Origin: a virus | Lineage: Duplodnaviria > Caudoviricetes | Virus record (IMG/VR): IMGVR_UViG_3300029288_000152 | Coordinates: 1 to 64,000 of that record | Direction: 5' to 3' (one strand) | Length of the DNA: 64,000 bases | In this document: in pieces, positions 1,583 through 27,317 of the stretch | How positions within the stretch are numbered: position 1 is the stretch's first letter | Layout: each line of letters starts with the position of its first letter | Position numbers and translations under genes: made by a program | Notes under the pieces: generated by a model | Seen by the model: the letters and a program-made list of their open reading frames with translations, nothing else | Databases searched by the model: none | Told to the model about the DNA's origin: nothing

Positions 1583-1810
1583 ATGTACTACTCGTTTCAA
1601 GGACGAAAGTTTACATCCACCCGAGGGGACTGCTACATCGATGTGGATGTGGATGCCCATGGGCTGGTGACGCAGGTGTGGGAGTGTGATGACTTTGGGG
1701 TGCGGAGGCCTAAGGGAGATGTCACCAAAGGTTGGGAGGGGGCATCGGTATCGGAGTACTGGCAACCCATCGCCCTGGACACCACATTGCAGTTGGATGA
1801 GGGCATTTGA
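1583..1810 (+). CDS. Small protein with DEGI tail (#1)
   Basis: Ends LDTTLQLDEGI*; SD upstream; TGATG overlap with the next ORF. Confidence 0.75.
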   Translation: MYYSFQGRKFTSTRGDCYIDVDVDAHGLVTQVWECDDFGVRRPKGDVTKGWEGASVSEYWQPIALDTTLQLDEGI

Positions 1811-1989
1811 TGGACGCCTCCAGCACCTTCGACTGGCGAGTGAGGAAGCTGGTCGGGATTGTGGCGCATCGCCATCCTAAGTGGGATCGGGCGAGATGCA
1901 TGACTGAGGTGCGGAGGATTCCCCCACGCCGACTCGATCAGGCCGTGATGATCCTAGTCAAGCGCACGATGCCAAGGAGCACCTAGGAG

Positions 1990-2235
1990 ATGTCATCACC
2001 CCTGAACGATTGGCACCCCCGCTACTCCGGCCCTCACAGGTCAGGCATCTGTCGGTGTGGCCATGCGTGGGATGATCATCACTTGGGCATTGTGCTGAAT
2101 CCGGCCTACATCGCAGCGACAGGTGAGGCGTATATCCCCCAAGAATGTGAATTCTATGGCTTCAATGAGACGGGGGGACTGGATGCGCATGGGCACGATC
2201 ATTGCTTCCAGTATGTGGATGCGAAGGAGACGTGA
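1990..2235 (+). CDS. Hypothetical Cys/His-rich protein
   Basis: GGAG SD; CRCGHAWDDHH...C...HDHC. Confidence 0.55.
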   Translation: MSSPLNDWHPRYSGPHRSGICRCGHAWDDHHLGIVLNPAYIAATGEAYIPQECEFYGFNETGGLDAHGHDHCFQYVDAKET

Positions 2236-2511
2236 TGCCGAACTTGCCAACCGTGCTCGCACTAGCCGTAGTGAAGGGGAAGGTCACGAGCTATGCCCAA
2301 ACTGTGGCTGACGTGGAGAACGTGTCCTTGTCTGGACTGGCTGCTATCCTGCGGGAAATCGCTGATGAGTTATTGAGGAGGCAGTGATGAGTAGAGGACC
2401 AACAGCACCAGTTGAACAGCAGGACCTGGATCGTGTTGCCTATCTCTTACTACGGATCAGCAAGCAGCTTGCGGAGTTGATCCAGATCATCAATCATGGG
2501 AAGGTGAAGGC

Positions 2512-2799
2512 ATGACCTCTTCTCAAAAGGCTGAGGACTTAGCCCTCGCCAAACGCTTTGATCTCAACCAATGGCTGACCGACTTCGGCATCCCCTTGGC
2601 TGATCCGTATCATGGGATGCTGATGCGGTTCTCGCATGAGGAGTTGGAGGCGCTGGTGGATGCTGCACAGGCTGAGGCGCGTCTGGAGCAGGCCGAGCGG
2701 GATGCACAGTTGGCTGATGACATTCGTAAAGAAGCGGCGGGTGAAGACTTGGGCATTCCAGACGCGATCCGCGCAGCCGCGAAGGAACAGCAGGGATGA
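2512..2799 (+). CDS. Hypothetical protein
   Basis: ATGA overlap, GAAGG SD, helical composition. Confidence 0.55.
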   Translation: MTSSQKAEDLALAKRFDLNQWLTDFGIPLADPYHGMLMRFSHEELEALVDAAQAEARLEQAERDAQLADDIRKEAAGEDLGIPDAIRAAAKEQQG

Positions 2800-2878
2800 G
2801 CGCACTAAGCCCGTTCGCGCCAATCCTGTTTTTGGGACTTGTTGTTGTGCTTGAGCTGGTGTTTGAAAGGATATTGCC

Positions 2879-3094
2879 ATGACTGACCTCGCGCAAGACC
2901 GAAAGCCGGACAAGCTGCGGGCGGTGCTGGTGTGGATCTATCTCGCGTTCCCGCTGCTGTTGATGCTTTCGCTTGCCTCGGAGTCCGACTCACTCATGTC
3001 GTGGCCGTCGTTTGTGACTGGTTCACTCACGCTGGTTCTCGTGGAATTGGTCGCAGGTGCCTCGTGGGGCTTCTGGACCGGGAGGCTGCGATGA
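2879..3094 (+). CDS. Hypothetical membrane protein
   Basis: Two hydrophobic stretches; starts with the 17-nt repeat ATGACTGACCTCGCGCA. Confidence 0.5.
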   Translation: MTDLAQDRKPDKLRAVLVWIYLAFPLLLMLSLASESDSLMSWPSFVTGSLTLVLVELVAGASWGFWTGRLR

Positions 3095-3315
3095 CTGACC
3101 TCGCGCAGCAGCGGCGGAGGATGGCTGAGCGATTAGCCCGCGCAGCCTTCGATGCGGAATTCACTACCGCAGAGGCTGAGGAGTTCCTGCGCGAGGCGAT
3201 GGCGCTCGCGGTGGAGGCGGAACGGGAGCGGCTGAGAGAGGCGGTTGGGAAGGTGCAGTCGTCCCTCTGCAAAGATTGCGTGTTGTCCCTGCTCTCGCCG
3301 GGAGGCCAGCCATGA
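3091..3315 (+). CDS. Hypothetical protein
   Basis: ATG at 3091 after GGAGG; overlaps the stop of the previous ORF. Confidence 0.55.
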   Translation: MTDLAQQRRRMAERLARAAFDAEFTTAEAEEFLREAMALAVEAERERLREAVGKVQSSLCKDCVLSLLSPGGQP

Positions 3316-3488
3316 GCGTGCCGGAGCGGTGCCCGAAGCATCCAAGGTATCAAGCGAAACGCAAACCGACGAGTGGGTGTCGGACGTGTCGGGCAATCTA
3401 CAAGCAGCGGCTTCTAGAGGTAAGCAACCTACTGGAGTGGTGCGGCTACGTCCACCGGGAGCCAGCCGCGAAGGAGCAGAAGGGATGA
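3312..3488 (+). CDS. Small Cys/His zinc-binding-like protein
   Basis: CPKHPRY...CRTC; GGAGG SD. Confidence 0.5.
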   Translation: MSVPERCPKHPRYQAKRKPTSGCRTCRAIYKQRLLEVSNLLEWCGYVHREPAAKEQKG

Positions 3489-3599
3489 TGATCGAGTGGA
3501 TAGGAAAGTCGCTGGCCGTGGTGGCGATTGGGGTGGCCTGTCTGGTCTGCCTGTGGATCGCCGTGGATCTGCTGCCGGATTCCGATCAGGAGGCTCCCG

Positions 3600-25371: not shown

Positions 25372-25373
25372 CC

Positions 25374-25907
25374 ATGTTTGAGACACTGCATCCGCCCTAT
25401 AAGGTGATCTACGCCGATCCGCCATGGAACTATCGGGACAAGCATCGTGGGCATGGGGGAGCGGAGGATCATTATGCCACGATGACCACCGATGAGACGT
25501 GCATGTTGGATGTAGAGGATCTGGTAGATCGGGATGCCCTGCTCTTCCTGTGGGCAACCTTTCCCAACCTGCCAGAAGCCCTACAGGTGATGCACTATTG
25601 GGGATTCACCTACAAGACCCAAGCCTTCACATGGATTAAAACCTATCCACGCAATGGCAAGCCCGTCATGGGAATGGGATCCTACACTCGCAGCAATGCG
25701 GAGGTGTGCTTGCTCGGGTTGAAGGGCAGGAAATGGAATCTAGCGCGGAATGTGTCGAGCGTAATCATCGCCCCGAGGGGTCAGCATAGTGCCAAGCCAC
25801 CTGAGGTCAGGGAAAGGATTGTGCAACTGTGTGGAGATGTGCCACGGGTGGAGCTGTTTGCGCGGGAGAGGGTGCCAGGATGGGATTGTTGGGGGCTTGA
25901 GGTGTAG
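25374..25907 (+). CDS. MT-A70 family N6-adenine methyltransferase
   Basis: VIYADPPWNY, LFLWAT, FTWIK, HSAKP, ELFARE. Confidence 0.9.
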   Translation: MFETLHPPYKVIYADPPWNYRDKHRGHGGAEDHYATMTTDETCMLDVEDLVDRDALLFLWATFPNLPEALQVMHYWGFTYKTQAFTWIKTYPRNGKPVMGMGSYTRSNAEVCLLGLKGRKWNLARNVSSVIIAPRGQHSAKPPEVRERIVQLCGDVPRVELFARERVPGWDCWGLEV

Positions 25908-25915
25908 GAGGTACT

Positions 25916-26227
25916 ATGGTACCATATGAGTACTACGGCACAACTGGATTCACCGCTCAACAGCAGTACCAGCAGGCCATGAATGCGCAACAGACCCAAT
26001 GGTATGGGATACCAGAGTGGGACAACGGGGCGACTCATGGCACATGGGCAGGGATAACCCGTGCCACCAACCCATACTGGCAAACTTCTATAGGCAACAT
26101 CGCGACAGATCCTAACACAGCACTGAATACCATCTGGTTCGTGAACCCCAGTTCCTGTGCGATCATTGACGGCATTGCTACTCCTAAACCCATCGACCCC
26201 GATCTCTACATCGATGAGGGGATATGA
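25916..26227 (+). CDS. Small protein with DEGI tail (#13), contains a capsid-like segment
   Basis: Ends PIDPDLYIDEGI*; AGGAGG SD. Confidence 0.75.
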   Translation: MVPYEYYGTTGFTAQQQYQQAMNAQQTQWYGIPEWDNGATHGTWAGITRATNPYWQTSIGNIATDPNTALNTIWFVNPSSCAIIDGIATPKPIDPDLYIDEGI

Positions 26228-26511
26228 GAGCCATTCTTCACACCGTCTGTGGATGTACCAAAACCGTCACTATCAGCAGATTCGCTGATAGCATCAGCAT
26301 CCCTTACACGGCTGGTACTCGTGTGGTGTACGATCCCACTGAACAGGGACCCCCGCCACCCCAAACTAGGAAACGCATCTTCGAGTATCGGTCAGATGGG
26401 GCAGATGGGGCGTACTACTATGAACGACTCGATCCGCCTCCTGCACCATGTCCTACCTGCAAGCGTGCTCAGCAGTTACTGGACACCTACGGTCTTGATG
26501 AGGGTATTTAG
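26224..26511 (+). CDS. Small protein with DEGI tail (#14)
   Basis: Ends TYGLDEGI*; ATGA overlap. Confidence 0.7.
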   Translation: MRAILHTVCGCTKTVTISRFADSISIPYTAGTRVVYDPTEQGPPPPQTRKRIFEYRSDGADGAYYYERLDPPPAPCPTCKRAQQLLDTYGLDEGI

Positions 26512-26718
26512 ATGACTCCCACACCTAGAAGGTGGACTAACCAAGAAGTAGCCGTCGCTATCCAGTCTGAGGGAGACCTTGGCTACGTGGTTCAGCACTA
26601 CTTGCCGCTAGACCGTATTGCAGACACGAAGTTGCGAGACTTGTGCATCCGTGCCAAGACCTGCCTTGACCAGATAGAGGAAATGTTGCAGGATGAACTT
26701 GATGACGAGGGCATATGA
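26512..26718 (+). CDS. Small protein with DEGI tail (#15)
   Basis: Ends QDELDDEGI*. Confidence 0.7.
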   Translation: MTPTPRRWTNQEVAVAIQSEGDLGYVVQHYLPLDRIADTKLRDLCIRAKTCLDQIEEMLQDELDDEGI

Positions 26719-27017
26719 ATCCCACACCTGAAATGTTCGCCCTTCTCCGCTCCAGAGCCCAGTCCTTCAGCCGCAAGGTGGCTCCGATCTACCACCAGAT
26801 GGGCTGGAAGTGGGCACTGGATCGGGCCCGAGGCATGCAAGTGCCGTCTGAGCGGGACATCCACATTGCCGCCTTGGGACTCATTGATGAGCTAGAGGAT
26901 GCCATCGGGACACACGTCTCCGAAGTCACCTCAGGGGGCATCGCGGTGAAAGCAGATGATCATGGCCTACATCTCATCTTTGAGCTGTCTACGTCAGTGT
27001 TGTATGGAGATGTGTGA
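26715..27017 (+). CDS. Hypothetical protein
   Basis: ATGA overlap. Confidence 0.55.
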   Translation: MNPTPEMFALLRSRAQSFSRKVAPIYHQMGWKWALDRARGMQVPSERDIHIAALGLIDELEDAIGTHVSEVTSGGIAVKADDHGLHLIFELSTSVLYGDV

Positions 27018-27152
27018 TGCTGATCCTTGACACACATATCCATCGGTGTCGAGCCTGTCAGGATGAGTGGATCTGCAGCATGCCTGATTGCACACAGGAT
27101 GATATCTGTGATCAGTGTGATCATGCAGCTTTTGAAGATTGGATGATGGCCA

Positions 27153-27317
27153 ATGATTACTTTACGGGAAGTAGACGAACTGCTGGGGCTGTACTACGAA
27201 CGCATCATGACCGACATGGCCTCGGAGGAGTGGAGCGGGAAGGATCTTCTAAGACAGGATCAACTCGACCAACAAGTGATCACTGATCCTGAACTATTCC
27301 TAGATGAGGGGATCTAA
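27153..27317 (+). CDS. Small protein with DEGI tail (#16), 54 aa, not in the supplied ORF track
   Basis: Translated by hand: MITLREVDELLGLYYERIMTDMASEEWSGKDLLRQDQLDQQVITDPELFLDEGI*. Confidence 0.7.
   Translation: MITLREVDELLGLYYERIMTDMASEEWSGKDLLRQDQLDQQVITDPELFLDEGI

Follow-up and report, generated by a model that had tools for sequence, protein, structure and literature searches.

Small early proteins with a common C-terminal tag

The DNA analysed here (the window) is 64,000 nt long and forms the first 64 kb of IMG/VR virus record IMGVR_UViG_3300029288_000152 (Duplodnaviria; Caudoviricetes; 74,474 bases in all, here G000), whose gene content includes a terminase, portal, major head protein, endolysin and family A polymerase. 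Twenty small proteins of its early and middle arm, 17 encoded in the window and three beyond it, share a ten-residue C-terminal tag with the consensus (D)P(D)Lx[LI]D[EA]G[IV]-stop, and all 20 genes lie on the + strand of that arm, as an initial annotation had described for the members in the window. The densest array, seven tagged genes between 10497 and 12602, starts at the stop codon of the E1-like gene in an operon encoding a ubiquitin-like protein (Ubl), an E2-like enzyme, a JAB/JAMM metallopeptidase and the E1 (Ubl/E2/JAB/E1), a cassette absent from the initial annotation. The seven are 10497-10733 (78 aa, ending DPDLELDEGI, the first of the tandem array, which overlaps the E1 stop), 10730-10933 (67 aa, DPDLELDEGI), 10930-11142 (70 aa, DPDLMLDEGV, with a body related to that of 10497-10733), 11398-11625 (75 aa, CPDLMLDAGI), 11622-11834 (70 aa, DQDLMLDAGI), 12157-12393 (78 aa, DPDLLLDEGI) and 12390-12602 (70 aa, DKDLELDAGI).

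The remaining window members are 1583-1810 (75 aa, TTLQLDEGI), 14756-15046 (96 aa, WMQIDEGI), 15048-15254 (68 aa, DPDLYLDEGI), 15264-15467 (67 aa, with the short tag EPLDSGI), 18229-18477 (about 82 aa, with the short tag ERLDGGI), 23526-23729 (67 aa, DPELYLDEGI), 25916-26227 (103 aa, DPDLYIDEGI), 26224-26511 (95 aa, YGLDEGI), 26512-26718 (68 aa, DELDDEGI) and 27153-27317 (54 aa, DPELFLDEGI). Beyond the window, also on the + strand, are G000 70814-71041 (DPDLMLDEGI), 71041-71289 (DPALVLDAGI) and 73523-73741 (DQQLDEGI). The last window member overlaps, by 134 bases, a Cys-rich 90-aa ORF in another frame (27014-27286), the second half of which may be read-through. On re-reading the sequence, all 16 stops listed in the initial annotation were found to end D[EAS]G[IV]-stop and the ORF ending at 18477 to end LDGGI-stop; the DPDLxL-like lead-in counted in eleven window members and the lengths of 54-103 aa were likewise correct.

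The tag is a real and highly non-random feature, present in a dozen related loci. In G000, DxG[IV]-stop occurs 22 times on the + strand and never on the - strand, and the two extra matches, at 13924 and 48342, score 0.3 and -7.6 bits compared to at least 18.2 bits for the members (using a position-specific scoring matrix trained on the tag members themselves). The pattern [LI]DxG[IV]-stop was observed 20 times (19 members and the match at 13924), against a mean of 0.2 (maximum 2) in 40 Markov genomes of order 2 and of 0.15 (maximum 1) in 40 of order 5, and the long form of the tag was observed 13 times against none in these genomes. An unbiased scan for patterns at three of the last six residues gave a log10P of -38 in G000; among 10 other phage records the values, uncorrected, ranged from -4.3 to -7.8. 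The lead-in DP[DE]Lx[LI]D matched nine times across the six frames, each time continuing into a terminal tag, and no in-frame internal copy of the tag was found.

We considered whether the common end could be a DNA element, either a Shine-Dalgarno and stop/start coupling unit or a recombination repeat, that reads as DEGI when translated. The tail DNA often doubles as the ribosome site of the next gene. For seven of the 20 tagged genes there is a GAGG together with an ATGA overlap with the next start, the preferred tag codons are GAT, GAG and ATA (ATA in 7/19, compared to 3% in long genes), and the copies are 60-79% alike over 36-48 nt. This role would shape codon choice but does not explain the residues. 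For the Pro, Leu, Gly and Ile codons of the tag, the differences between copies are about those expected from genome usage, so that the residues stay fixed even as their synonymous sites approach saturation. Given this saturation and the fact that only 7/20 genes overlap the next ATG, selection acts on the tag peptide, as had been proposed from the divergence of the copies. Moreover, GAGG is missing from the Ala, Ser and Gly variants, the motif and its stop always share a reading frame, the P and F dialects of related loci (below) use other codons and tagless relatives have no such ends. The DNA-element explanation is thus largely refuted and retains almost no probability.

The proteins preceding the tag had been described as mostly unrelated. 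This holds in that the 20 bodies without their tails form 19 BLAST clusters, but several bodies in the 10497-12602 array fall into two loose families that are common to relatives. No Pfam or PHROG family matches more than one of the 17 window members (best E 0.0076 for PHROGs and 0.019 for Pfam). An AlphaFold2 model of 11398-11625 (mean pLDDT 88) consists of a four-strand beta-meander, a helix and a strand, with the tail predicted at lower confidence outside the fold. When this model, the only one of a tagged protein, was compared with known folds, which bears on a possible beta-grasp fold of the bodies, nothing matched clearly (best Z 5.1; rmsd 4.0 with 66 aligned), and there were no viral fold matches at E <0.001; in the Atlas, only small-barrel look-alikes with a TM of about 0.6 were found for 11398-11625 and nothing usable for the untagged neighbor 11844-12155. 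Compared to 61 untagged small early ORFs, the bodies are Lys-poor (2.6% vs 4.8%, p 5e-4) and aromatic-rich (13.1% vs 7.5%), with the same trend in the tagged bodies of a second genome, G001. Two of the 20 bodies have no Lys at all, and the tail is nearly Lys-free.

The anatomy of the tail was examined with 115 pooled tails, a set partly selected with a Gly-hydrophobe regex and containing proteins of the query itself. Of these tails, 113 have Gly as the penultimate residue and 113 have a hydrophobic residue three positions before the Gly, the register of Leu73 in ubiquitin. The residue directly before the Gly is Glu in 96, Ile in three and Lys in two, whereas the cognate Ubl has an invariant Lys there. 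Ile is the last residue in 19 of the 20 G000 tags, and no ORF ending at the tag Gly was found in G000 or in 18 loci. Several known termini have characteristic end residues, namely a Pro-Phe end in the SSB C-terminus, a penultimate Tyr in HbYX, hydrophobe-Gly-Phe/Leu in the ClpX IGF loop and a small nonpolar end in SsrA/Tsp signals. None of these consensus residues characterizes the 115 tails.

The ubiquitin-like conjugation cassette

The cassette adjoining the tag array is encoded on the + strand and comprises a 69-aa putative Ubl ending TGGNKG (6840-7049, assigned by position and family alignment), an untagged cassette-linked conserved gene (7332-7643), an E2-like enzyme (7646-8326; Prok-E2_D, PRTRC B-like; PF14460 at E 5.8e-7, above cut-off), a 452-aa JAB/JAMM metallopeptidase with N-terminal Cys-rich and helical domains and a C-terminal extension (8329-9687) and a ThiF-family E1-like enzyme (9680-10519; PF00899 at E 4.6e-13). 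We infer that 6840-7049 is a Ubl; its Lys68 and Gly69 are invariant in 16 aligned Ubls (15 of them from other operons), and a longer reading (6777/6813-7049) had no Pfam or NCBIfam match. Among 47 KG-type Ubl-like ORFs, 35 end at the Gly and six carry a one-residue L or V extension, one of these in the tagged locus L039. Cys152 of the E2 is invariant in 32 aligned sequences, as are the ATP motifs and Cys207 of the E1 in its alignment and E234, H283, H285, S294 and D297 of the JAB in 69 aligned sequences. The JAB model matches JAMM deubiquitinases (Foldseek, to E 1.4e-5), though its Pfam score is below the cut-off. Judged by these invariant residues, the cassette is predicted to be catalytically intact. 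The E1s of the tag-bearing clade also have five invariant Arg residues that are seldom seen outside it; one of them, R151, lies in the loop following the DGGN motif.

By gene content and family matches, the cassette appears to be of a known operon type, Prok-E2_D or type 6d, and to be related to PRTRC systems. The fourth operon type of Iyer et al. 2006, type 6d, has a JAB, a Gly-ended Ubl, an E2-like protein and a ThiF-type E1 (PMC1779556), and Prok-E2_D/PRTRC systems share with the phage cassette a JAB with an N-terminal domain, a standalone Gly-ended Ubl, a Cys-containing E2-like protein and a ThiF-type E1 in one operon. The phage cassette differs in its longer JAB (452 aa) and in scoring below the curated PRTRC cut-offs: an NCBIfam scan (TIGR03735-7, with TIGR03737 matching the E2 and TIGR03736 the E1) of ten proteins near the cassette gave 38.9/101.8, 24/131.45 and 83.3/144.75 bits for PRTRC A, B and ThiF, respectively. 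It also adds 17-20 tagged small proteins and two conserved genes, and the accessible portion of the type 6d description holds nothing alike (PMC1779556).

Four untagged + strand genes are conserved with the cassette. The first (6024-6770), upstream of the Ubl, has an acidic tail and homologues in L001 and L039, and 7332-7643, which is conserved in the clade, has no Pfam or NCBIfam family match and may correspond to the conserved, largely alpha-helical fourth protein of type 6d operons, has homologues in L034, L036, L039 and L044. The other two lie in the tag array: 11139-11396, which encodes a His/Cys, putative zinc-binding protein, has homologues in L001, L037, L039, L040, L042 and L045, and 11844-12155 has homologues in L001, L033, L035, L037, L039, L040 and L042. 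These latter two genes recur within the tag arrays of six and seven other loci, respectively, and are candidates for a reader of the tail or a scaffold. There was no match to 6024-6770, 11139-11396 or 11844-12155 in 12 tagless relative records. We also noted that the acidic tail of 6024-6770 ends AEEG and that its L001 counterpart (7368-7937) ends EDPGF, possibly a degenerate tag.

Tag and cassette in related loci

JAB-based scans detected 16 loci with this long JAB, 13 of which carry tagged ORFs (54 tags in 81 kb); the three without tags are fragments of 1-2 kb. The same regex gave 13 scattered matches in 168 distant JAB loci (2.28 Mb). The tags come in dialects, DEGI (G000 and L035), DEGL (six loci), PEGL and PEGF, and can be generalised as [DP]-P-[DE]-[LMQ]-x-[LVM]-[DP]-E-G-[ILF]-stop. 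G001 carries the cassette and 17 tag copies of the PEGF dialect, and in L001 the last residue is F in 17/18 tags. In L033, L034, L036, L041, L043 and L044, tagged genes lie directly upstream of the JAB gene, after the E2 gene where the contig includes it. The multi-tag loci group together in E1 and E2 FastTree trees, and D-type and P-type tags follow E1 subclades. L048 (7.5 kb), the sister to the tag clade in the E1 tree, has a similar upstream gene and no tag in its sequence. L033 27-263 differs from L041 374-855 by a deletion of 242 bases, whereby one body runs in frame into the last 21 residues of the next gene, a natural tail swap unless the join is a misassembly. The P-type phages L001 (13496-15595), L040 and L042 have a duplicated family of Cys/His-rich tagged bodies, with nine copies in one BLAST cluster.

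A profile search of 1.84 billion representatives, with a profile that includes the tail, gave 51 matches, some of them the query's own rows; 50 were small proteins, 48 of which end Gly-hydrophobe (not regex-filtered), and one was an unrelated large protein. Two tagged proteins among the profile matches are on contigs whose lengths (13,418 and 25,908 bases) equal those of JAB matches, which was counted in favor of linkage. The 30 tagged proteins that were looked up are mostly on contigs shorter than 5 kb, one contig of 10,029 bases equalled no JAB match in length, and a word-based search (alignment A7) yielded nine proteins from 83 candidates. DNA scans of viral contigs gave no match for DPDLxLD[EA]G[IV]-stop, two contigs for tandem LPEG[LF]-stop (G001 and L114, the latter without a tagged ORF on the matched strand) and one contig, without a tagged ORF, for PDLxxDEG[LI]-stop. 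Among genome contigs, capsid alignment found no relative and the JAB scan found only distant operons. GenBank phages included no close relative (best capsid identity 37%; best polymerase identity <32% among the matches listed) and no match to a tagged body under E 0.2. The one DNA data set listed as containing the sequence, a landfill metagenome that may be its source, covered almost none of 6000-16000, and no RNA data set was listed.

Tag and cassette are missing together from relatives that share other genes. Of 29 capsid relatives, only G001 has the JAB, and 12 relative records had no match to the Ubl, E2, JAB or E1, at most two stray tag-like ends each and no homologue of 75 tagged bodies. 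The near-complete tagless genomes G002-G004, which are among these 12 records, have 75-80% capsid identity and 47-52% polymerase identity to G000, and the absence of the tag from genomes with so similar a major capsid protein speaks against a virion-loading signal, one of the roles proposed initially. Among 29 polymerase relatives, one has an E1, of a different operon type, and none has more than four loose-pattern matches; G045, G047 and G055 have no E1 and four, one and zero such matches. A distant polymerase relative, L419 (G064), has a different E1 operon with a GG-ended Ubl that carries a one-residue Phe extension. Two genomes have both cassette and tag and six near-complete ones have neither (Fisher p 0.036, for a genome set chosen post hoc, after the searches). 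A terminase tree rejects a G000+G001 clade (p-AU 4e-5), indicating that tag and cassette were not simply inherited with the head genes. Thus, in this sample the tag implies one cassette subclade, while the cassette does not imply the tag. The co-occurrence suggests interchangeable parts that aim the cassette at different targets.

The same distribution could arise if the binding partner of the tail is a host protein, or a phage protein with no part in conjugation, and tag and cassette are only carried together on a mobile early-region island. The tagged genes are scattered over the whole early arm (1583-27317 and 70814-73741), beyond the cassette, and all tagged loci have one cassette lineage, with many other cassettes lacking tags. 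However, several loci have tagged genes within the operon itself, close relatives jointly lack the cassette and the scattered members with their bodies, and the tag dialect tracks the E1 tree. We therefore consider this explanation unlikely.

Possible roles of the tail

Overall, the analysis supports the initial proposal that a library of small early proteins carries a common address label acting at the level of the peptide; as was also proposed, the bodies may be host-takeover or anti-defence effectors. Among the roles first suggested for this label, a conjugation handle and a docking tail have gained support, since the tag co-occurs and is interleaved with the phage Ubl/E2/JAB/E1 cassette. 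We tentatively favor a model in which the tail serves as a C-terminal docking motif for the ubiquitin-like module that the phage itself encodes, with the E1, the E2, the JAB or a bridging small protein (11139-11396 or 11844-12155) as candidate readers. As supported by the conserved residues, the KG-ending Ubl would be made, activated on Cys207 of the E1 and passed to Cys152 of the E2, with trimming or removal by the JAB. The tagged proteins would plug into one pocket of this machinery through the free C-terminal hydrophobic residue and the acidic/hydrophobic lead-in, and the variable body of 45-95 residues would bind a particular host or phage target, such that the library could work like E3 substrate receptors for a pathway without a recognisable encoded E3. 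New members could arise by deletions that fuse a body in frame to a neighbor's tail, as in the single example of L033 and L041.

The alternative that competes most directly is a library of pro-modifiers, in which the JAB would clip the last hydrophobic residue, the exposed Gly would be activated by E1 and E2, and the small protein itself would be ligated. The penultimate Gly, the strictly terminal position of the tag without internal copies and the hydrophobic residue in the Leu73 register all fit this alternative, as do the six Ubls of the cognate family with a one-residue L/V extension, including that of the tagged locus L039. Two studies also offer precedents: the BilC cut in BilA falls between Gly97 and Ala98, a single residue short of the C-terminus (PMC10557695), and in type II CBASS Cap2 conjugates cGAS by way of a C-terminal Gly or Ala (PMC10097602). 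The five clade-specific Arg residues of the E1, including R151, would suit an acidic tail, but they come from one clade and are not independent events. Docking was preferred over processing because the last residue, which would be discarded, was in no case found to be missing and is nearly fixed per genome, while 35/47 Ubl-like ORFs end at the Gly. That is, no mature Gly-ended form of a tagged protein was found, though most Ubls have no extension. In addition, the tags have Glu where the cognate Ubl has an invariant Lys, and their acidic D/P-E-G end does not resemble the invariant K-G end of that Ubl. For these reasons we regard the pro-modifier alternative as somewhat less likely than docking.

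A third possibility is that the tail is a substrate address or degron, marking phage proteins for Ubl modification or timed destruction. Such a signal would be compatible with the strictly terminal position of the tag, its occurrence on early proteins of small size and its linkage to the conjugation cassette. However, the tail is almost Lys-free and the bodies are Lys-poor, to the point of lacking Lys in 2/20, and the acidic, Gly-containing end is unlike SsrA/Tsp degrons. We judge this explanation improbable. The avoidance of Lys in the bodies instead favors docking, and the tail predicted outside the folded body in the model was also counted for it.

Several observations weigh against docking on the conjugation module. 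The near-invariant penultimate Gly (113/115 tails; 48/50 profile matches) is better explained by processing, and the Lys depletion may reflect a beta-rich fold. Most tag loci were found via the JAB, which biases the sample toward co-occurrence, and all tagged loci belong to one cassette subclade, so the linkage could be island co-inheritance. The capsid tree is compatible with a G000+G001 clade (p-AU 0.086). Finally, repeated C-termini are lacking in Salmonella phage Arash, Vibrio phage D69, Bacillus phage KLEB27-3 and G032, all of which carry related cassette genes, and 17 cassette-bearing records gave nine pattern matches compared to 10 control matches.

The proposed layout has a counterpart in eukaryotes, where F-box proteins and poxvirus ankyrin-PRANC proteins combine a constant docking module with a variable binding domain and are expanded in one genome. 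There, the module is folded and docks on host Skp1/cullin, whereas the phage library has a ten-residue linear tail and would serve a phage-encoded prokaryotic pathway; the likeness is in how the parts would work. An E3-receptor-like arrangement was found in that 20 proteins with 19 body clusters share one tail in one genome. Among bacterial systems, Bil and Bub operons likewise have an E1, an E2, a Ubl and a peptidase, and BilC trims one residue after the Ubl Gly (PMC10557695, PMC11601596). In the parts of these sources available, however, they are host operons with one Ubl gene, while here the genes are phage-borne and a repeated tail is found on many non-Ubl proteins, and Bub is described as working via oxyesters (PMC11601596), while the phage E1 and E2 keep the conserved cysteines. 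The available text of the Bil work mentions only rare RING-type E3 proteins in bacteria (PMC10557695). CBASS Cap2/Cap3 similarly activates a non-ubiquitin protein through a conserved C-terminal residue, a precedent for pro-modifiers (PMC10097602), but as described in the accessible portion it has one substrate ending in Gly/Ala, in contrast to about 20 proteins ending in Gly and a bulky hydrophobe.

The tagged library appears to be new, as no described counterpart was found, while the cassette itself is of a known operon type. Full-text searches of openly available papers, without their supplements, listed no account of the tag or of a set of tagged proteins next to a Ubl cassette in a phage, and no functional study of a PRTRC-type cassette. 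We think it reasonably probable that this phage lineage carries a programmable Ubl system, in which one E1/E2/JAB/Ubl engine is served by about 20 fast-evolving modules per genome that enter through the ten-residue tail and either aim the engine at host proteins or are themselves conjugated modifiers. For the choice of targets by prokaryotic E1/E2/JAB/Ubl pathways, 20 proteins sharing a tail are a candidate specificity layer. If either docking or pro-modification were true, this would be a phage-run strategy of protein conjugation, and the ten-residue tail would be a portable handle with which to direct modification in bacteria. The natural tag dialects allow cross-swap tests with the four enzymes and synthetic peptides.

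The cultured phages Arash (L319), D69 (L320) and KLEB27-3 (L321) might serve as models of the cassette in the laboratory. The Ubl of Arash ends GTKG, and two genes of the Arash cassette region (1519-2274 and 3499-4539, the latter with a ThiF match) bear the annotation of structural proteins; in D69, GTKG occurs more than once in a long ORF. Some distant cassettes have head-to-tail di-Ubl genes, in which KG is followed by a second copy (L002 7575-7925, L070, L071, L083 and L091).

Tails similar to the tag were also seen in cyanobacterial, Chloroflexi and viral JAB/E2/ThiF operons, where a helical protein beside or fused behind the Ubl has an [ILV]-P-x-G-[FL] tail. Sixteen of 36 homologues of this protein end in [ILV]PxG[FL], with IPEGF in three cyanobacteria. 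This tail differs from the phage tag in being present in one copy per operon, in some forms without Gly (PCF, LNF) and in its distant position in the E1 tree. It hints that such tails can be native to these operons; homology to the phage tag is unproven. The helical protein, with the tail or variants of it, is encoded at L275 625-1062, L288 7977-8414, L290 8001-8438 and L289 7898-8149, and further loci are L014, L016-L020, L023, L024, L295, L298, L299 and L301; the Dehalococcoidia versions lack the tail. In the cyanobacterial operons, a gene upstream of the Ubl ends QISLF or QIPLF (L275 62-619, L288 7309-7971, L290 7324-7995 and L298 6878-7348), which we take to resemble a sliding-clamp-binding motif. 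Repeated ORF ends in the Dehalococcoidia JAB loci L287, L303, L304 and L305 (S.RV nine times, L.KT five to eight times and S.RM six times) are probably DNA repeat arrays.

No tRNA genes were found. We also noted other features of the early arm. Near-consensus TTGACA-17-TATGAT promoter-like sites recur (14688-14716, 15500-15528 and about 20321). In 4000-16000, seven promoter-like sites were counted, compared to 5.9 expected. A Fic-domain gene (119-646) and an RtcB RNA ligase gene (4846-5976) lie in the same arm and had no tblastn match in the 12 tagless records or G001. A gene for a P-loop primase/helicase-like protein (13665-14618) is on the - strand inside the early arm. In the PD-(D/E)XK nuclease gene (16031-18019), residues ~215-490 look like an intein with a homing endonuclease, and relatives match residues 1-212 only.

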